The notes: generated by a model not told the origin, from the sequence alone. Shown: positions 7,484-62,595, counted from the stretch's first letter. The stretch: 64,000 nt of DNA from Bacteroidales bacterium (GCA_004557315.1 SFEH01000005.1:3816-67815), one strand, 5' to 3'. Program-made: numbers and translations.

Positions 7484-7728
7484 GCAGAAGCGAGACAATT
7501 ATTTCGATTACTATCATTGCTGCAGCTACGATATGAGGTGGATAGATAAGTCCGACACAAAGGGATGACAATCGGGATTACGACAGACAGCACTATGTAT
7601 GATTTGTTTCATCGTGCAGTCGAGTTTCAGTTCTTTTAAGTGTTCCGTAATTTTTGATTTGTGAAATATTTCTCCTATAATTGGTGCCTGTTTCACGTGG
7701 AACAATGATATATCCCTCTATATATTCA

Positions 7729-7783
7729 GAATCGTTCAAGAATCGTTCAAGAATCGTTCAAGAATCGTTTAAGAATCGTTTAA
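7729..7783. repeat. Tandem repeat, 11-bp unit x5 (gaatcgttcaa x3, gaatcgtttaa x2)
   Basis: Read directly; the units abut with no spacer. It sits just downstream (minus sense) of the tRNA-Ser terminator. Confidence 0.95.
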
Positions 7784-7822
7784 GAAAAGAAAAAGGCCGA
7801 AGTCGTTTAAGCTTCAGCCTTT
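7784..7822 (-). terminator. Rho-independent terminator of tRNA-Ser
   Basis: On the minus strand, aaaggctgaag / cttcggccttt form an 11-bp stem with one G-U, followed by ttcttttc. The wobble pairs only on the minus-strand RNA. Confidence 0.7.
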
Positions 7823-7845: not shown

Positions 7846-7932
7846 CGGAAAGAGGGGGATTCGAACCCCCGGTACAGTCACCCGTACACTGCATTTCGAG
7901 TGCAGCGCGTTCGACCACTCCGCCATCTTTCC
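7846..7932 (-). tRNA. tRNA-Ser (anticodon CGA), class II with long variable arm, no encoded CCA
   Basis: Minus strand: GGAAAGA-TG-GCGGAGTGGTCGAACGC-G-CTGCA CTCGAAA TGCAG-TGTACGGGTGACTGTACC-GGGGGTTCGAATCCCCC-TCTTTCC-G. Has acceptor, anticodon and T stems, a GTTCGAATC T-loop, and discriminator G. Confidence 0.93.
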
Positions 7933-18144: not shown

Positions 18145-18705
18145 ATGGATATTGGAGTAATCGCCAAACGTTATGCCAAGGCACTGTTGCTCTTTGCACA
18201 GGAGCAGAAGGCTGAAGACACTGTCTATCAGGAGGTTCTTCAGTTTATCGACTCGTATGGCAAGGTGGAGCAGTTGGCTACCGTACTGGGAAACCCTCTT
18301 TTGCCAGCTGAGCAGAAAGAGCAGGTTATCTGCCAGGCAGCATCAATCGAGGTGAGCCCAGTCTTCCGGAAATTTGCAACTTTGGTTGTCGCTCATCGTC
18401 GAGAGTCGTTCATGCTCTTCATCGCCTATAGTTATGTTTCTCTCTATCGTGAGCTGAAGCATATCAGCATTGGCAAGCTCATCACTGCCGTACCGGCAAG
18501 CGAAGCTGTTGCCAATCGTCTTGAGAAGCTCATCGAGCAGCGTTCGCAGAACTCTGTAGATGTGGTTCTTGAGACCAAGGTTGATCCAAACATTTTAGGC
18601 GGTTTCATCTTCCAGCTCGACGACTTGCGACTCGATGCAAGTGTGTCGTCGCAGTTTGAGCAGATCAAGAAGCAATTTATTGAAAAGAACAAACGAATCA
18701 TTTGA
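18145..18705 (+). CDS. atpH: F1 ATP synthase delta subunit (OSCP)
   Basis: 186 aa; RYAKALLLFA N-terminus, LGGFIFQLDDLRLDASV C-terminus. Confidence 0.9.
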   Translation: MDIGVIAKRYAKALLLFAQEQKAEDTVYQEVLQFIDSYGKVEQLATVLGNPLLPAEQKEQVICQAASIEVSPVFRKFATLVVAHRRESFMLFIAYSYVSLYRELKHISIGKLITAVPASEAVANRLEKLIEQRSQNSVDVVLETKVDPNILGGFIFQLDDLRLDASVSSQFEQIKKQFIEKNKRII

Positions 18706-18823
18706 CAATTGGACTATTTACGATTTTACAATTGCTTGACTACCAATGAGGTCTTTGTCGGATTGTAAATTGTCAAATGGTAAAATAAGAGAATTGTCAA
18801 ATTGTAAATTGTCAAATTGTAAG
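18703..18823. repeat. Imperfect palindromic element with ATTGTAAA/TTGTCAAA tandem-word arms (element E0), atpH-atpA intergenic
   Basis: The reverse complement of the left arm tgacaattggactatttacgattttacaattgcttgac aligns with gtcggattgtaaattgtcaaatggtaaaataagagaattgtca. The right arm continues as aattgtaaattgtcaaattgtaag. Confidence 0.8.
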
Positions 18824-18831
18824 AAATCAAT

Positions 18832-34390: not shown

Positions 34391-35185
34391 ATGGCAGAAG
34401 AAACCAAGCTTGTGGCAGTTGTCATTCCGATTTATAAATCGCACTTGTCTGATCAGGACAGAATCTCCCTAGACCAGACCTATAAGGTTCTTGCCCGATA
34501 CCCAATGATAGTGGTACATCCTGAAGGCTTGGATCTGAGCGAATTTCGACGCGACTATCCTGCCTTGCAGTACCAGTCGTTCGACAAGTCCTACTTCAGC
34601 AGTATTGTCGGCTACAACAAGCTGATGCTCGCTGAGGAGTTCTATTTGGCTTTTTCCGACTATCAATACATTCTGATCGACCAGCTCGATGTGTTTATCT
34701 TCAAGGACGAGCTTGAACAGTGGTGTCTCAAAGGCTACGACTATATTGGTGCCCCATGGATTCAGAATAAGATCGGCAGATTGCCGGTCGTCAGGCATTT
34801 CTCAAAGCTCATCGCTTATACTAAGCGACTTTTTGGCAAGAAGAGCAAGTATTACCGTTATGGCAAGGTCGGCAACGGAGGGCTGTCGCTTCGTAAGGTT
34901 CAGAGCCATATCAACGTGATCAGGACTCAGCCGGCACAGGTGCGCCTGTATGCCGAAATCAAAAACCGCCAGCATCTCTACAACGAAGATACGTTCTGGG
35001 CTATGGAGCCTATCGGATTCAAGTATCCAAGCGCCCAGGAGGCAATGCTCTTCTCCTACAACAAATACCCCGAGCAGAGCTACAAGCTCACAAAAGGCGC
35101 AACTCCCTTTGGCTGCCATGGATGGACGAAGCCCAAATACCGAAAGTTCTGGTGCACAAAGGGAGAAGTGCCAACAATGCCATGA
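34391..35185 (+). CDS. DUF5672-like protein (putative glycosyltransferase-like; family recalled from memory)
   Basis: VAVVIPIYKSHLS...YDYIGAPW. The upstream in-frame ATG at 34379 overlaps the LytTR stop (ATGA), so translational coupling is possible. Confidence 0.7.
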   Translation: MAEETKLVAVVIPIYKSHLSDQDRISLDQTYKVLARYPMIVVHPEGLDLSEFRRDYPALQYQSFDKSYFSSIVGYNKLMLAEEFYLAFSDYQYILIDQLDVFIFKDELEQWCLKGYDYIGAPWIQNKIGRLPVVRHFSKLIAYTKRLFGKKSKYYRYGKVGNGGLSLRKVQSHINVIRTQPAQVRLYAEIKNRQHLYNEDTFWAMEPIGFKYPSAQEAMLFSYNKYPEQSYKLTKGATPFGCHGWTKPKYRKFWCTKGEVPTMP

Positions 35186-35309
35186 GGTGTTAAGGTGTTA
35201 AGGCGCTGCGCTTGTTAAGATGTGAAGGTGTTCATTGCCTTTAGAAGAGGCTGTCTGCGCTGTCAAAACAACACCTTAACACCTTCACATCTTCACATCT
35301 TCACACCTT
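35186..35309. repeat. Octamer-armed palindromic element E1, wedged between two convergent stop codons
   Basis: Left arm ggtgttaaggtgttaaggcgctgcgcttgttaagatgtgaaggtgtt. Right arm aacaccttaacaccttcacatcttcacatcttcacacctt. Bounded by TGA at 35183-35185 and the complement TGA at 35310-35312. Confidence 0.9.
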
Positions 35310-37028
35310 TCACATCTCCACGTGGAACCAATCCACATCAACCCATCCGCCAGTCTTCTTGGTTGCATAGTTGAAGATAGCGAACTTACTGCCCATGAAG
35401 TGACGGCGGTAGTCGAAGATCATCTTGATGTCGCGTCCGATGTTCTTCCAGTTGGTGCCGTCGGTGCTGTAGGCAAACGAAGCGAGGTCGCGTCCGTCGT
35501 TGAAGTCAGCATGCAGCCTGAGATAGATGAGCTGCTGGGGCTTCTTGGTGTCAGGAGCCTTGGTCTTCTTTAGGTTGAGTGCAACCTCCTCAATCACTGT
35601 TTCATCGACTTTCTCCACCACCTTATTGTCGTTGAGCACCACATTCTCTTCGGTGAGCTGCAGATAGAGCTTGTTGCCACGCTTCACTACACGGAGCACG
35701 CCACTGTCGCCATTGTATGCAGCCAGACCGCAACGGTCGCCATCTTTCATGTTGGCAACATCGATGCAGACACTGCCTGTGCTCTGAGGTCCGCCAATGC
35801 GCTGAGTGATGGTGTTTGGAGCGACATTGATGTTATCGACTACGCGGGCTGTCTTAAGGCGCAAATATCCTGGGCGGTCAAGCAGACTCCATGCTTCGTC
35901 GATAGGGTTGTGGTTCCATTGCCAGTATAGCTTCAGTCCCTTGTCCTCATGATAGCCCGATTTGCGCATACGGTTGAGTGCCTGAGTTGGGAAATCAAAC
36001 TCGTCGCTGTTGATGATGCCGCGAAGCGAAGGATGCTGCTTTGTGAGGTCGTTAGGAATATGGTAGTTTTTTGGATTCAGGCAAGCCTCGGTGTCGCTTG
36101 GATTCACTCCTTCGTTCAGCTCACCGCACATTGGCCAGCCATCGACCCATGTTACTCGCATCGCACAAGGCACACGGCCTATGCCGCCACGATCCTGGAA
36201 GATGAGTGCCCACCAGTTAAGATCGCTCTGGTCATCACCTACCAGACAGCCTTGGCCTACACCACCATACACCTCGAACGGAGTTTCGAGAATGACGTGC
36301 TTCTCATATGGGCCAGTGATATTGTCGGCACGATAGCAGACCTCACGGCGAACGCGTCCAGGCACATCCCATTTCATCGAGATCATGCAGAGGTAATACT
36401 TGCCATTGTGCTTGATTACGCTGCTTCCTTCGAGCAATGCGCCTCGTTCCTCTGGATCGTCGGCACTATCGACAATCTTCTTGTTCACGCCACCTTCCTT
36501 TGGCTCAAAGTTGTTGTCGAGTTCAACCAGTGTGCAGCCTCCCGAACCAGTAAACATATAGATCTTGCCGTCTTCGTCAAAGAAGAGCGAGCCGTCGTGC
36601 ATGTGAGGCGGACGAGCCACGAGCGTCCAAGGTCCTTCAGCCCTGTCGGCCGAGAAGACAAAGCCTTTGCCAGGAGCGCCATTGGCAGTAAACCACACAT
36701 AGAACTTGCCCATGTGATAGCGGATGCTCGAAGCCCACTGACCTTGTCCATAGACAGTCTTGTTGTCGGTGAGGTTGTAGCGGTCGCCATCGTCGATGCG
36801 GTCAAACACATAGCTGATCGTCTCCCAGTTGACCATGTCCTTCGAACGCATGATAGGTCCTCCAGGCATGAGGTGCATTGTCGTACTGATCATGTAATAG
36901 GTATCGGCAACCTTGCACACGCTGATGTCAGGAACATCGGCATTAATAACTGGATTGCGGAAAGTCTCTTGCGCCTTGATGCTCATTGCAAATACCACAA
37001 CAAGGCATAACATTAAAATTTTTTTCAT
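35310..37028 (-). CDS. GH43 glycoside hydrolase with C-terminal ConA-like beta-sandwich domain
   Basis: Signal peptide. NPVINADVPDISVCKVADTYYMISTTMHLMPGGPIMRSKDMVNWE, GQWASSIRYHMGKFYVWF, LLEGSSVIKHNGKYYL. 572 aa. Confidence 0.85.
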   Translation of the reverse strand: MKKILMLCLVVVFAMSIKAQETFRNPVINADVPDISVCKVADTYYMISTTMHLMPGGPIMRSKDMVNWETISYVFDRIDDGDRYNLTDNKTVYGQGQWASSIRYHMGKFYVWFTANGAPGKGFVFSADRAEGPWTLVARPPHMHDGSLFFDEDGKIYMFTGSGGCTLVELDNNFEPKEGGVNKKIVDSADDPEERGALLEGSSVIKHNGKYYLCMISMKWDVPGRVRREVCYRADNITGPYEKHVILETPFEVYGGVGQGCLVGDDQSDLNWWALIFQDRGGIGRVPCAMRVTWVDGWPMCGELNEGVNPSDTEACLNPKNYHIPNDLTKQHPSLRGIINSDEFDFPTQALNRMRKSGYHEDKGLKLYWQWNHNPIDEAWSLLDRPGYLRLKTARVVDNINVAPNTITQRIGGPQSTGSVCIDVANMKDGDRCGLAAYNGDSGVLRVVKRGNKLYLQLTEENVVLNDNKVVEKVDETVIEEVALNLKKTKAPDTKKPQQLIYLRLHADFNDGRDLASFAYSTDGTNWKNIGRDIKMIFDYRRHFMGSKFAIFNYATKKTGGWVDVDWFHVEM

Positions 37029-37051
37029 AAAAAAAGGTAATGTATTAATAA

Positions 37052-37222
37052 TTAGGTTGTGAGGTTTTGAGGTTATGAGGTTGTGAGGTTGTGAGGTTGT
37101 GAGGTTGCAAGATTCAGTATCTATGAGGATAATTGTCTGCGCGGAGCTACCTTAAAACCTCAAAACCTTAAAACCTCAAAACCTTATAACCTTATAACCT
37201 TATAACCTTATAACCTTATAAA
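37052..37222. repeat. Octamer-armed palindromic element E2 (TGAGGTT / AACCT[CT]A words), intercistronic GH130-GH43
   Basis: Left arm is seven TGAGGTTN-type octamers (37052-37110). Right arm is about nine AACCT(C/T)A(A/T)A octamers (37148-37222), which overlap the GH130 stop at 37216-37218. Confidence 0.9.
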
Positions 37223-38181
37223 GAATTATTCTTAGTCCACTCAATAATCTCATCGATATAACCACAGGCGATGCAGACAGTGGTGTCGGCAGCTCCATAA
37301 TAAAGTGTCACGCGGTTGCCATCGCGCAATGTTGCGCAAGGGAACACGACATTCGGCACATCGCCCGTCATCTCATACATCTCGGCAGGAGCAAGGAGGT
37401 AAGGGCTTGAGCGATACAGCACTTTCGACGGATCGTCCTTGTCGAGAATAGCTGTGCCGAGCGAATAGCGATAGCCGTTGCAGGTGTGGATAACGCCATG
37501 ATAGAACAGCAGCCATCCGTCGTCGGTCAGCATAGGCACCGCGCCTGCGCCAATCTTCAAGCATTGCCATGCGCTCTGTTCGAAAGGAGTGGGCTTCATC
37601 ACAACACGGTGTTTGCCCCAGAAGATCATGTCTGGAGAGTAGCTGATGTAGATGTCACCAAATGGAGTGTGACCATTGTCCGACGGACGGCTCAACATAG
37701 CATACATGCCATTGATCTTCTGTGGGAAGAGCACACCATTGCGGTTGAAAGGCAAGAACGCGTTCTCACACTGGAAGAAATCCTTGAAGTCGAAAGTATA
37801 GCCGATGCCGATGGTCGGACCGTTGTAGCCATTGCACCAAGTGATCCAGTAGCGGTCTTCGATCCAAGTCACACGCGGGTCATATTTGTAGTCGGAATGG
37901 ATGAAGTCAGTATTGCCGCACTTGAACTTGATCGGTTCGTGAGCGATGTCCCAGTTGATGCCATCCTTGCTGAATCCCGCAAAGATGTTCATCTGCACCG
38001 AACGGTTGTCGCAACGGAAGACACCGGCATAGCCGCCATTGAAAGGCACCACCGCACTGTTGAAAATGCTGTTGGCACATGGAATATGATAGCGTCCGAT
38101 AATAGGATTGGCAGAATATCTCCACATAGGTTCGGAGCACTGCTCCGGCCTGTTTTCCCATGGAAAAGAAAGTTCGTTCAT
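37216..38181 (-). CDS. GH130 family beta-mannoside phosphorylase/hydrolase-like protein
   Basis: No signal peptide. [35 protein letters not shown]..., [17 protein letters not shown] at 38181 preferred to the TTG at 38223. Confidence 0.85.
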
Positions 38182-38220: not shown

Positions 38221-38228
38221 CAAATATA
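38221..38228 (-). promoter_or_regulatory. -7 box TATATTTG (minus strand) for the GH130-GH43 pair
   Basis: Reverse complement of caaatata. Lies 40 nt upstream of the ATG at 38181. Confidence 0.5.
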
Positions 38229-38312
38229 TTGTTTATTTGCGCATCTTCAAAAAAATATAACAATATTTATAAAAATATTGCCCGATTCGCTCAATTTGCA
38301 AAAAATATAGCT

Positions 38313-40517: not shown

Positions 40518-40549
40518 AAAATCGCATCGAGTTAACAGTTAACGTTAAC
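40518..40549. repeat. GTTAAC-rich repeat copy A (aaaatcgcatcgagttaacagttaacgttaac)
   Basis: 32 nt identical to copy C (40976-41007). Its last 28 nt are the inverted complement of copy B, with 1 mismatch. Confidence 0.95.
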
Positions 40550-40687: not shown

Positions 40688-40715
40688 GTTAACGTTAACT
40701 GTTAACTCAATGCGA
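40688..40715. repeat. GTTAAC-rich repeat copy B (inverted orientation)
   Basis: The reverse complement of gttaacgttaactgttaactcaatgcga is tcgcattgagttaacagttaacgttaac, against tcgcatcgag... in copy A. Confidence 0.95.
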
Positions 40716-40975
40716 ATGTGAATTACATCAAGACTCATCTTCGACAGCAAAGCACCATCGCCAGCAAAGCACCTTCAAACATCCACACCCCAACATCTTC
40801 ACTCCTTCATCTCTCAAGGTATTTCTTTTCTGTAATGCTACTAAAAATATTTCTGCTAAAATTGTTTCTGCTATATAAATATATAATAATATAATTTTAA
40901 ACTATTAATATGCGCGCGAGCGCGATATATAATGTATAAAATAACGTTAACCCTCTCGCAATCATTGAAATAAAC

Positions 40976-41007
40976 AAAATCGCATCGAGTTAACAGTTAA
41001 CGTTAAC
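40976..41007. repeat. GTTAAC-rich repeat copy C (direct with A)
   Basis: Exact 32-nt match to 40518-40549. Confidence 0.95.
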
Positions 41008-58104: not shown

Positions 58105-58159
58105 ATGATAATTTCTGATATGTAGATAAATATGGGATAAAATGTATAGATTTGGGATG

Positions 58160-58284
58160 GAAAGATGTGAAGGTGTGAAGGTGTTAAGGCGCTGCGCTTG
58201 TGAAGATGTTCAATGTCTTCAGTAGTGTTTTGTCTTGTGTAGAGTCAATGAACACCTTAACATCTTCACACCTTCACATCTTTC
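58160..58284. repeat. Octamer-armed palindromic element E3 in the LytTR/OM-barrel divergent region
   Basis: gaaagatgtgaaggtgtgaag (58160-58180) is the exact reverse complement of cttcacaccttcacatctttc (58264-58284). The core at 58206-58274 matches 61475-61543 with 3 substitutions. Confidence 0.95.
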
Positions 58285-58340
58285 TGTCCCAAATTGGCTA
58301 ACGTCTATCCCAACCTATTGCCCGAATGAAAAGATTGCTA

Positions 58341-61054: not shown

Positions 61055-61432
61055 ATGTTTATAGTTATGAGATACCGTTTATTACTTACCAATACAGTGA
61101 ATGGAGAGGAAGCGGAAATCGTTGTCCCCTCGTATTTGCCACTCGAAGAGCTTAGCCATAAGATTAAGCTTGAACTTGACTTGCCATTATGCGATAACGG
61201 ATGGCATCGGTTCCAGTCGCTTGGAACTGTCTATGTTATCGACGAGCATCTTTTTGCCGAAACTGAATGGCTGACAAAGTGCAACCTCTATGTCGGCCGA
61301 TACCGCAGCAGCGAAAGAATACGTCTGAAGCACGTGTTCACAGGTATAGGTTCGGCTATTACTTATATTCAGGATGATGAGAATTTCTTCTATATCTTTA
61401 AGATCCGTGTCACTCTGGTGAAAAGGTGTTAA
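61055..61432 (+). CDS. Small protein resembling the pRiA4b ORF-3-like (PRiA4_ORF3) domain (from memory); alternative start 61067
   Basis: YRLLLTNTVNGEEAEIVVPSYLPLEELSHKIKLELDLPLCDNGWHRF... fits the family pattern (YxFKVxL...IWRRIxVP...LxxLHxxIQ...GWxxxHLHxF) only loosely. The last four codons and the stop lie inside element E4. Confidence 0.55.
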   Translation: MFIVMRYRLLLTNTVNGEEAEIVVPSYLPLEELSHKIKLELDLPLCDNGWHRFQSLGTVYVIDEHLFAETEWLTKCNLYVGRYRSSERIRLKHVFTGIGSAITYIQDDENFFYIFKIRVTLVKRC

Positions 61433-61549
61433 GGCGCTTCGCTTGTGAAGGTGTTAAGGTGTTAAGGTGTGAAGATGTTCAATGTCTTCAGTAGTCTGTT
61501 GACTTGTGTAGAGTCAATGAACACCTTAACATCTTCACACCTTAACAAC
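61420..61549. repeat. Octamer-armed palindromic element E4 between convergent genes
   Basis: aaaaggtgttaaggcgcttcgcttgtgaaggtgttaaggtgttaaggtgtgaag...aacaccttaacatcttcacaccttaac. Relative to E3 it carries a 24-nt octamer-repeat insertion in the left arm. Confidence 0.95.
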
Positions 61550-61551
61550 TA

Positions 61552-62595
61552 TCAATCGATTCCTTCGATTGTCTTGATCTTGCCATTCTCGTCCCATTCG
61601 ATCTCGCAAACCTTGAGCGAGCGGAGCCAAGACTTGCCACCAGAAGGCACAGAGTCGTGGTGGAAGAGATACCACTTGCCCTGGAACTCGATTATGGCAT
61701 GGTGGGTTGTCCAGCCAACGACAGGGGTAAGGATCTCGCCCTGATAGGTGAATGGACCATAAGGATTGTCACCTACTGCATAGCAGAGGAGGTGAGAGTC
61801 GCCTGTAGAGTATGAGAAATAGTACTTGCCATCCTTCTTGAATGTCCAAGAAGCCTCGAAGAAGCGATGTGGGTCGTCAGCCTTGAGAGGCTCGCCATTC
61901 TCATCGACAACTACGATAGGACGTGGAGCCTCGGCATAGTTGAGTCCGTCTTTAGTGAGACGCACGCAACGGCTTGGGAGAGCATCGACATGACCTTCTG
62001 GCAGGTATGGAGTCTCGAGATGGATATTGTCCTTATAGCGTTGGAGCTGACCTCCCCAGAGACCACCGAAATAAACATAAACCTCATCGTCGGCATCGTC
62101 GCGGAAAGCGCACATGTCGATGCTGTAGCTGCCAGGTACTGGTGCTGGCTGAGGGATGAATGGTCCTGCAGGATTGTCGGCAATGGCTGTGCCCCAATGG
62201 AACACGTCGTTGCGGTCCTTGAGAGGGAAGTACATGATATACTTCTTCACCTTCTTGCTGAAGCCCAAGCCTGCTGCCTGTTCCTCGGCATTGGTTGGCA
62301 CTTCAACCACATATTCCTGCACGTCGCAATCCCAGAGCTGACGACCTGCCCAAGGGATGTCTTCCTGACGGAGCACACAGCCGTGGTCGGTGACAGTACC
62401 GGTCATTGGGTCACCATCGATCGAAAGGACATGATAGTCCTTCATGATGTACTGGTCACCATTGTCGTTCTCAACATTCGAAGCCTCCCAGTCGTGACTA
62501 GGATAGATATAGATCTTGCCATCGAACACGTGTACCGATGGATCTGCCATATAGTCGGCAGGGAAAAGATAACGCTTTGTTGCCTTTGTAGCCAT
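61552..62595 (-). CDS. GH43 beta-xylosidase/alpha-L-arabinofuranosidase-type enzyme (cytoplasmic)
   Basis: FPADYMADPSVHVFDGKIYIYPSHD, FFEASWTFKKDGKYYFSYSTGD, WTTHHAIIEFQGKWYLFHH. No signal peptide. Confidence 0.88.
   Translation of the reverse strand: MATKATKRYLFPADYMADPSVHVFDGKIYIYPSHDWEASNVENDNGDQYIMKDYHVLSIDGDPMTGTVTDHGCVLRQEDIPWAGRQLWDCDVQEYVVEVPTNAEEQAAGLGFSKKVKKYIMYFPLKDRNDVFHWGTAIADNPAGPFIPQPAPVPGSYSIDMCAFRDDADDEVYVYFGGLWGGQLQRYKDNIHLETPYLPEGHVDALPSRCVRLTKDGLNYAEAPRPIVVVDENGEPLKADDPHRFFEASWTFKKDGKYYFSYSTGDSHLLCYAVGDNPYGPFTYQGEILTPVVGWTTHHAIIEFQGKWYLFHHDSVPSGGKSWLRSLKVCEIEWDENGKIKTIEGID

Follow-up and report, generated by a model that had tools for sequence, protein, structure and literature searches.

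The closest precedent for the element studied here (E2) is the hairpin of 7-nt STRR units which lies between hupS and hupL, and which has a proposed but unproven role in transcript stability or translational coupling (PMC2670836). Like E2, the STRR heptamers of cyanobacteria are short tandem units in intergenic spacers, sometimes facing complementary arrays to give an intra-operon hairpin. The class to which E2 belongs differs from them in its unit length (8 nt instead of 7), its phylum (Bacteroidota) and its words, GAGGTT, AAGGTGT and TTGACAAT. To our knowledge, neither a strand rule at start codons nor a strain-level allele series, both of which are described below, has been reported for STRRs.

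Several other repeat families share some of the properties of E2. TAACTGA heptamers form direct repeats in Beggiatoaceae, cyanobacteria and five Bacteroidetes (PMC4679880). As with E2, these arrays lie a few nt upstream of starts in a preferred orientation, their length changes from strain to strain by whole single units, and a post-transcriptional action has been proposed for them (PMC4679880); however, they have another word and period and, being direct repeats, mostly have no facing complementary array, whereas E2 is two-armed around an invariant centre. The GGGAATC heptamers of Xanthomonas and the GGGGAYT heptamers of Nostoc are also intergenic, over-represented and variable in length and sequence between close relatives (PMC4692102). 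Some of them occur as inverted arrays which could form stem-loops, and polymerase slippage has been invoked (PMC4692102), but they are G-rich and capable of forming quadruplexes, whereas the words of E2 contain no runs of G and have a period of 8. REP and BIME sequences are imperfect palindromes in intergenic or intercistronic DNA, as is E2, and can stabilise upstream mRNA. REPs, however, are 20–40 nt long, carry a GTAG or CGTC tag, have a conserved sequence in high copy number and are linked to RAYT transposases (PMC3733652), whereas E2 is 171 nt long, is made of tandem units and has a centre which is single-copy in the DNA examined. The BrickBuilt element of Porphyromonas gingivalis, a MITE with an internal minisatellite, resembles E2 as a repeat-bearing non-coding element of the Bacteroidota (PMC4596501). 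E2 showed none of the features of a MITE, which are fixed terminal inverted repeats, duplicated target sites and numerous near-identical copies.

Our best reading is that E2 is of a kind already known, the intergenic long-unit simple sequence repeats of STRR type, and would be their octamer counterpart in the Bacteroidota. Searches of the open-access literature on Prevotella, Flavobacterium and Bacteroidetes found neither the strand rule nor palindromes built of octamer repeats described for Bacteroidota.

Structure and genomic context of E2

E2 occupies positions 37051-37221 of the window, by which we mean the whole 64-kb stretch of DNA that was analysed, and lies between a GH130 gene and a GH43 gene which are both on the minus strand. 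The host is a Prevotella-like gut bacterium. E2 comprises two facing octamer arrays around a centre. Read on the plus strand, the left arm (37051-37106) has seven octamers of the form NTGAGGTT, which in register are ATTAGGTT, GTGAGGTT, TTGAGGTT and ATGAGGTT followed by three copies of GTGAGGTT. The centre (37107-37148) is 42 nt long and reads GCAAGATTCAGTATCTATGAGGATAATTGTCTGCGCGGAGCT. The right arm (37149-37221) has nine octamers of the form ACCTYAWA, in register (37149-37220) ACCTTAAA, ACCTCAAA, ACCTTAAA and ACCTCAAA followed by five copies of ACCTTATA. TRF placed 6.8 copies of AGGTTGTG at 37054-37107 (93% match) and 9.1 copies of ACCTTATA at 37149-37221 (92% match). As an inverted repeat, the arms measure 61 nt, lie 39 nt apart and are 80% complementary. 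The arm-centre-arm architecture with complementary core words, seven octamers facing nine, which a preliminary description had read from the sequence, was confirmed by TRF and by the in-register reading, and the other factual statements of that description were also verified; its interpretations fared less well, as set out below. When one mismatch was allowed, the doubled word GAGGTTNTGAGGTT had nine matches in the 64-kb window, all nine within E2 (shuffle expectation 0.06), and the GAGGTT word was found in the window only in E2. With a period of 8, the element consists of head-to-tail copies of a unit in the 5–11 nt range of intergenic long-unit simple sequence repeats.

The GH130 gene (37216-38181, minus strand, ATG at 38181) encodes 321 aa and was identified by Pfam with an E-value of 3e-67. 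Its TAA stop codon (37216-37218) is inside the last octamer of the right arm, and the C-termini of its homologues end in NNSL or a few residues beyond. The GH43 gene (35310-37028, minus strand) encodes 572 aa with the Pfam domains GH43 and GH43_C2 and the signal peptide MKKILMLCL; its final codons and stop (VEM and stop) are inside an arm of another palindrome, E1, and relatives terminate in WFHYDEE/K and stop. Both gene identities and the overlap of the GH130 stop with the right arm had been given correctly in the preliminary description. On the mRNA (minus) strand the right arm becomes the 5' arm, (TATAAGGT)5 (TTTGAGGT/TTTAAGGT)x2, which begins at the GH130 stop codon, and the left arm becomes the 3' arm, (AACCTCAN)7, which is free of G and ends 22 nt upstream of the GH43 ATG. 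The order in the mRNA is then the GH130 stop, (UAUAAGGU)5 and four further units, the centre, (AACCUCAN)7, 22 nt and the AUG. UAA occurs in all three frames of this strand within 24 nt of the GH130 stop. The spacer from the array to the GH43 ATG (37029-37050) is A/T-rich and contains a homopolymer (37029-37035) which is U7 in the mRNA. There is a possible A-U hairpin about the GH43 start codon (37010-37043).

On the minus strand, 39 nt before the GH130 ATG (38221-38251), there is a promoter motif of the canonical Bacteroidota form, TTTG-19 nt-TATATTTG. Neither a TAnnTTTG nor a TTTG promoter motif was found on either strand in or beside E2 (36950-37330) or between GH130 and GH43, and a scan for sigma-70 promoters and terminators gave no match in or beside E2. 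The scan likewise found no intrinsic terminator, meaning a G+C-rich hairpin with a U tract directly after it; the U7 run of the mRNA strand is 15 nt past the array and ~20 nt past the last predicted pair of the stem. GH130 and GH43 are likely to be co-transcribed, given the promoter motif before GH130, the lack of one in the spacer and the conserved synteny. The nearest homologues of GH130 (80% identity) are in an unrelated GH92 operon, and those of GH43 (83% and 77% identity) are in GH3 and GH31 operons. In these related operons the GH43 homologues have no array and are preceded by A-rich spacers of 13–102 nt.

RNA folding gave −81.1 kcal/mol (z −11.7) for the plus strand of E2 and −56.0 kcal/mol (z −6.4) for the minus (mRNA) strand, both far below shuffles, with 7 and 2 G-U pairs respectively. 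The asymmetry which had been expected from G-U pairs on one strand and A-C mismatches on the other is thus real, and it is the plus strand which folds better. However, it comes from two C-to-T differences in one unit, later amplified five-fold, and not from many independent compensations. The preliminary description pointed to G-U pairs in the plus-strand RNA, antisense to the operon. If that were the relevant strand, E2 would encode a structured regulatory RNA, stabilised by its G-U pairs, opposite the operon, and the same direction of asymmetry in three other palindromes of the window (E3, E4 and E5) is in line with this. We consider such an RNA hardly probable, as the asymmetry hangs on the amplification of a single unit variant, the two arms are free to differ in length, the scans found no promoter or terminator motif on the plus strand, and the rule followed by the class as a whole, described below, is set by the mRNA strand. 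At the gathering threshold, the Rfam covariance models placed E2 in no family, the sole match in the window being a tRNA elsewhere; by E-value threshold E2 matched just plant and animal miRNA hairpin models, at 45.5 bits against a cut-off of 90.8, and no bacterial family. The best explanation is that E2 is a simple-sequence-repeat palindrome and neither a conserved folded RNA gene nor a transposon copy.

Strain variation of the arms and constraint on the centre

We compared E2 between strains using 22 contigs from pig gut, human gut and other metagenomes, reached via proteins identical or 98% identical to GH130, and one MAG (GCA_036309205.1). The gene order HD - GH130 - E2 - GH43 was common to all strain loci. 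The left arm, on the GH43 side, had 3, 5, 6, 7, 8 or 9 units, with the order of the unit variants (A-, G- and T-TGAGGTT) differing by strain, and the right arm, on the GH130 side, had 5, 6 or 9. At least 10 distinct alleles were found in 13 haplotypes whose GH130 genes diverge by 0.5–3%, and the alleles differ by whole units of 8 nt, with no change in the centre or the flanks. Collapse during assembly does not explain these alleles, since the first three were each found in at least two independent assemblies and co-vary with flanking SNPs; the nine-unit arm of the window was also reproduced by an independent contig (L001), up to that contig's end. Contigs L001, L003 and L007 terminate within the arrays and L294 has a gap there. 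The arrays of E2 therefore expand and contract in 8-nt steps, each arm independently and fast relative to point mutation, which is the signature of replication slippage. These changes leave both proteins unaltered, as the array is outside both reading frames save for the GH130 stop codon.

The unit counts of the two arms were uncorrelated among the 22 strain contigs and the unit variants were unmatched between arms, indicating that a long stem is not maintained. Co-varying paired positions of the kind expected from compensatory change were not found in E2, and most members of the family also lack a second arm. This speaks against the earlier proposal that the arms are under selection for structure rather than sequence, as does the finding that about three quarters of arrays in the wider class are one-armed.

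The centre behaves differently from the arms. It was identical in the window and in 19 of the 19 strain loci which contain that segment. Third codon positions of GH130 are polymorphic at 16.5% in the 13 haplotypes, and at that rate the probability of seeing no variable site in 42 nt is P ~5e-4. It should be noted that the adjoining promoter-bearing spacer upstream of GH130 is nearly as conserved, with 12 of 171 columns variable and half of these at alignment ends, which tempers a reading of strong constraint. The constraint on the centre is about that of regulatory intergenic DNA, and a model of E2 as purely a spacer and stem leaves its invariance unexplained.

The GAGGTT class, its orientation and a possible role for E2

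A scan for runs of three GAGGTT octamers, with each species represented by a single genome, found at least 119 loci, of which 96 among the matches listed (~80%) were Bacteroidota or unnamed. The taxa among the matches listed included Prevotellaceae, Alloprevotella, Bacteroidaceae, Flavobacterium, Saprospiraceae and Hymenobacter, and several MAGs had four to six loci each among these matches. The same word is thus arrayed in many genomes and at loci unrelated to one another. Of the arrays listed, about three quarters were one-armed and the others had a complementary AACCTYA arm. Judged from these matches, E2 belongs to the commonest word class, and it is the GAGGTT/AACCTCA word itself which is conserved, not a private change of E2. 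As GAGGTT is a word shared by a class of at least 119 loci, E2 need not have switched from the word used by E1, E3 and E4, and the earlier suggestion that both of its arms had changed word together is not supported.

A TRF census of arrays with at least 3 copies in the window and the listed GAGGTT loci (917 kb) gave 2 arrays of period 6, 30 of period 7, 136 of period 8 (47 of them lacking the search word), 9 of period 9 and 5 of period 10. Further array words in these 917 kb were AGTTGACA, CAATTCAC, CTAACTCC, AATGTCA, GTTGACC and ATTTGACA, the last being the word of E5. As read from these genomes, array elements like E2, with units of 7 and 8 nt, fill short intergenic spacers in many Bacteroidota. 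AC-rich arms were often interspersed with a AGCGAAGC or AGCGCAGC octamer, producing a 24-nt super-repeat (L122, L123); the arms of E1, E3 and E4 contain its reverse complement as a unit. At one locus (L106) arrays were nested within one another, and a viral scan for the GAGGTT array gave five matches.

The arrays are not oriented at random near start codons. With gene boundaries taken from a simple and crude ORF finder, one-armed Bacteroidota arrays within 15, 30 and 50 nt of a start codon had the G-free AACCTCA strand in the sense direction at 20, 21 and 27 loci, versus 2, 2 and 3 loci for the GT-rich strand (p ≤ 1e-4, among the matches listed). Most start-adjacent arrays (17/21) lie between co-directional genes, usually occupying the entire spacer, and 13 of these 17 are ≤ 59 nt from the upstream stop. 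The anchor of a one-armed array is the 5' end of its GT-rich strand, which is a median of 10 nt from a same-strand upstream stop, often sharing its TGA, and a median of 28 nt from an opposite-strand start codon which it faces; the far end of the array is a median of 86–178 nt from the next gene. The GT-rich strand contains TGA or TAA in every frame and begins at, or a few bases from, the upstream stop. Two-armed elements follow the order stop, 3–9 nt, hairpin, ~17 nt and ATG. Among stop-adjacent arrays there was a weak preference for the GT-rich strand in sense (16–21 vs 7–15), which was not significant. E2 obeys the strand rule, with its G-free AACCTCA strand in the mRNA sense before GH43.

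This rule may be due to the way in which translation starts in these bacteria. Bacteroidetes have no SD sites; mRNA structure and upstream adenines tune their initiation, and AUG is rarer than expected close to their start codons (PMC6847099). This would be a direct reason for keeping GT-rich arrays, with their many NUG triplets, off the sense strand ahead of starts. In the 188-nt spacer containing E2 the sense strand has 3 NTG triplets, all of them TTG and all more than 80 nt from the ATG, compared to 14 on the plus strand; the combined count of AUG and GUG is 0 on the sense strand and six on the plus strand. Across 15 two-armed elements, the sense strand was not significantly poorer in AUG and GUG (9 lower, 4 higher, p = 0.27). 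The sense strand was the weaker-folding strand in 11 of 14 comparable loci, although which strand is stronger in the survey is partly dictated by how the loci were found. This implies that strong pairing of the sense strand is not the preserved feature, and the bias in the choice of loci also weakens any support from the survey for an antisense RNA. Taken from sequence comparison, the weaker folding of the mRNA strand, the AUG/GUG depletion which is not class-wide and the array-free GH43 homologues would all argue against a strong structural role.

Variation of this type could also act on DNA. The repeats would then set the spacing or occupancy of a GH43 promoter or operator, or form a cruciform, with unit changes switching transcription as at a contingency locus. 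Unit-number polymorphism is typical of phase-variable repeats, the homopolymer adjoining the GH43 ATG also varies (6–9 nt depending on strain), and related arms have GCGAAGC or GCGCAGC units, GCGNAGC being an ultra-stable DNA mini-hairpin (PMC13037366). However, E2 itself has no GCGNAGC unit, its 8-nt period does not correspond to the DNA helical repeat, no TAnnTTTG or TTTG motif is in or beside it on either strand and the class rule is set relative to the mRNA strand, and we therefore hold a DNA-level switch or protein-binding array to be very improbable.

Another alternative is that E2 has no function of its own. The arrays would be a neutral by-product of slippage in tolerant intergenic DNA, and the strand rule would reflect the purging of harmful orientations which place AUG or GUG near starts. 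Unconstrained copy number and the unequal arms of E2 would be expected if this were so, as would the predominance of one-armed arrays, the diversity of words, the arrays which run into gene ends and provide the last codons, and the related operons in which GH43 homologues manage with A-rich spacers alone. It is harder to reconcile with the occurrence of the same word in different Bacteroidota families and orders, the precise placement of arrays at stop and start codons, the invariance of the centre in 13 haplotypes at odds with the third-codon-position rate, and the array E5 of the window, which is in the essential atp operon and is unaltered in 10 strains. We consider a wholly neutral E2 possible, though on the unlikely side.

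On balance we favour, with some reserve, the reading that E2 is a slippage-prone intercistronic spacer and hairpin which probably shapes the processing or translation of the GH130/GH43 mRNA. E2 would be transcribed inside a single GH130-GH43 mRNA, in which its 5' arm may serve as a trailer with stops in all frames, ending the progress of read-through or frameshifted ribosomes, and its 3' arm as a 56-nt G-poor leader without AUG or GUG for initiation of GH43 without a Shine-Dalgarno sequence. The arms are predicted to pair into an imperfect stem of 24–56 bp, its length set by the shorter arm. The base of this stem would be flanked by the GH130 stop and the region where ribosomes bind for GH43, so placed that it borders the upstream edge of the GH43 initiation region and can be reached by a ribosome finishing GH130. 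The stem would most likely be either a processing or stability barrier (a target for a double-stranded RNase or a block to 3'-exonucleases) or a translational-coupling element. Strains with different unit numbers might then differ in their GH43:GH130 expression ratio.

A more general and rather doubtful extension of this idea is that Bacteroidota use slippage-prone arrays of 7–8 nt as evolvable intercistronic controllers. A G-free array without start codons, placed before a downstream gene, would offer ribosomes a landing pad or be a C-rich tract on which Rho loads, and a complementary GU-rich array starting from the upstream stop would mask it unless the upstream gene was translated; unit changes would retune, strain by strain, the enzyme ratios of polysaccharide-utilisation operons, and the centre would be a recognition site for a protein or RNase.

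If the arrays do act on mRNA, they would be a simple and mutable means of setting how strongly adjacent genes are expressed relative to each other, in a phylum which has no Shine-Dalgarno-based coupling and which dominates polysaccharide breakdown in the gut. Should a mechanism of translation or processing lie behind the class-wide rule, the interest would be higher than that of a single locus. The arrays also have practical consequences: they break short-read assemblies, provide the last codons and stops of real genes and mark strain-level rearrangement points, and these effects bear on gene calling, strain typing and the quality of MAGs.

Other palindromes in the window

E1 (35185-35321), E3 (58150-58294) and E4 (61426-61550) use words of the GAAGGTGT/ACACCTTC type, in agreement with the preliminary description. 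E1 lies between convergent genes and has both flanking stops within its arms. E3 lies between divergent genes and is a close paralogue of E4 (~93% identity across ~75 nt); an exact-protein look-up for the LytTR gene adjoining E3 returned no record. E5 (18700-18825), which is new relative to the earlier list of E1 to E4, has the same architecture with a third word, TTTGACAAT/ATTGTAAA, which is TTG-rich on both strands, a point against the reading favoured for E2. It fills the atpH-atpA spacer, the atpH stop codon being in its first unit. E1, E3 and E4 each have the 16-nt unit AAGGCGCT(G/T)CGCTTGT in one arm. A metagenome scan with the query AAGGCGCTNCGCTTGT gave 120 matches, one of which (L171) was a genuine element of the E1 type, the rest being chance matches in coding DNA. 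By their sequences, E1, E3, E4 and the element on metagenome contig L171 are best placed in a subfamily separate from the GAGGTT class. We also considered a shared orientation of the five elements of the window, with the GT-rich arm first, and rejected it: a palindrome reads GT-arm-first on either strand, and therefore the direction of an element can be told only from its centre and from the GCGNAGC units.

The centre of E2 shares TGTCTGCGC with E1, TTCAGTA with E3 and E4, and ATGAGG..TTGTC with E5; the strings ttcagta and ttgtctg which had previously been pointed out are present in the centres as stated. We aligned the E2 centre locally to the centres of E1, E3, E4 and E5 and compared the scores to 2000 dinucleotide shuffles. 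The summed score exceeded the shuffled controls in the same orientation (p = 0.007) and not in the reverse orientation (p = 0.72), with values for single elements of p = 0.015 for E1, 0.08 for E4, 0.09 for E5 and 0.13 for E3. The homology proposed in the preliminary description thus does better than shuffled controls, and the resemblance appears to be real but weak.

This bears on whether E2 could be a MITE-like element, that is, a diverged copy of the mobile palindrome seen as E1, E3 and E4 with arms later homogenised to another word. The similarity of E3 and E4, the related copy in the unrelated contig L171, the short strings shared collinearly and in one orientation by the centres, and the position of elements at synteny breakpoints (L005; L267-L276) could all be taken in this way, and E3, E4 and L171 do resemble dispersed copies of another subfamily. 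For E2, however, a search of the ~1.7 Mb of DNA examined gave no further copy of its centre, no direct repeat is evident at its ends, and neither a target-site duplication, a fixed terminal inverted repeat nor an empty site was seen. The GH130-GH43 junction is confined to this lineage, which leaves no empty site for comparison. One-armed and stop-anchored arrays would also be hard to obtain by transposition. We regard a MITE origin as unlikely for E2, giving it little weight, and as possible for the E3/E4 subfamily.

The other palindromes differ in how much they vary. E5, the more irregular element, was unchanged in 10 strain loci. The unit numbers of E1 and E4 differ between strains, and the E4 junction exists in two diverged versions in different strains.

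Gene ends inside arrays and a synteny break

The GH43 gene was found to end inside the array of E1, an arm-centre-arm element at window 35185-35321, with its last three codons and stop (…WFH-VEM*) lying within the repeat units (window 35300-35321; L255, L257 and L259). Relatives have the C-terminal end …WFHYDEE* or similar. The native 3' end of GH43 appears to have been replaced by the E1 array, which would have provided the new stop. The final codons of a 125-aa ORF (61055..61432) adjoining E4 were also array-derived. In one strain contig (L005:5448-5629, compared with window 35185-35321), unrelated sequence directly follows the GH43 stop; E1 and the DUF5672 gene are missing and the breakpoint is inside the first array unit. 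Synteny breaks seem to coincide with arrays. At its other end, GH43 has its start codon in the loop of an A/U-only inverted repeat of 15 bp (window 37010-37043; ACATTAAAATTTTTT / AAAAAAAGGTAATGT), one arm of which contains a homopolymer run varying from 6 to 9 nt among strains.

Variable and constant elements among strains

Two clearly diverged element versions were found at a single stop-codon junction, that of E4 (window 61426-61550; L267-L276:3540-3800), next to a GH43-like protein (61552..62595) which is 100% identical between the same strains. In one of the versions, both arms carry the GGCGCTTCGCTTG unit. The number of units is variable inside each version too, and which version a strain has goes with whether a ~650-nt cassette with an ORF of 121-125 aa is present. 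In the ATP synthase operon, the spacer between atpH and atpA is filled by a fifth arm-centre-arm element, E5 (window 18700-18825). Its word, TTTGACAAT / ATTGTAAA, is the third among the window elements, and its first unit contains the atpH stop codon TGA. In contrast to the variable E2, the octamer-repeat spacer between GH130 and GH43, E5 was constant across 10 strain contigs except for one SNP.

Contig ends within the arrays

The ends of three short-read contigs (L001, L003 and L007) fall within E1 or E2 arrays; L007 terminates in E2 and has a foreign left flank. One scaffold (L294) has an N gap within an E2 arm. Repeats of the E1/E2 type break up assemblies of metagenomes, and MAGs probably under-represent them.

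Nested arrays and other repeats

At another locus (L106:2454-2943), a GAGGTT/AACCTTAT element is enclosed by an outer heptamer palindrome, TCACAAA…TTTGTGA. L122 (4300-4420) and L123 contain 24-nt super-repeats, AACCTGAC-AGCGAAGC-GACCTCAA, with the GCGAAGC mini-hairpin as one of their octamers.

Within the window, a 30-mer made of GTTAAC repeats (AAATCGCATCGAGTTAACAGTTAACGTTAAC) occurs downstream of an HD-domain gene, within 500 nt, as two direct copies and one inverted copy (40520-40549, 40688-40722 and 40978-41007); the copies resemble termini or operator sites belonging to something else. A degenerate AC-rich tract (…AGCAAAGCACCATCGCCAGCAAAGCACCTTCAAACATCCACACCCCAACATCTTCACTCCTTCATCTC…) at 40740-40810 resembles a decayed, one-armed array of the E1 type. 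About 60 nt separate an 11-nt tandem array (AGAATCGTTCA, 5.4 copies, 97% match; 7728-7786) from a minus-strand tRNA gene of 87 nt (7846-7932).
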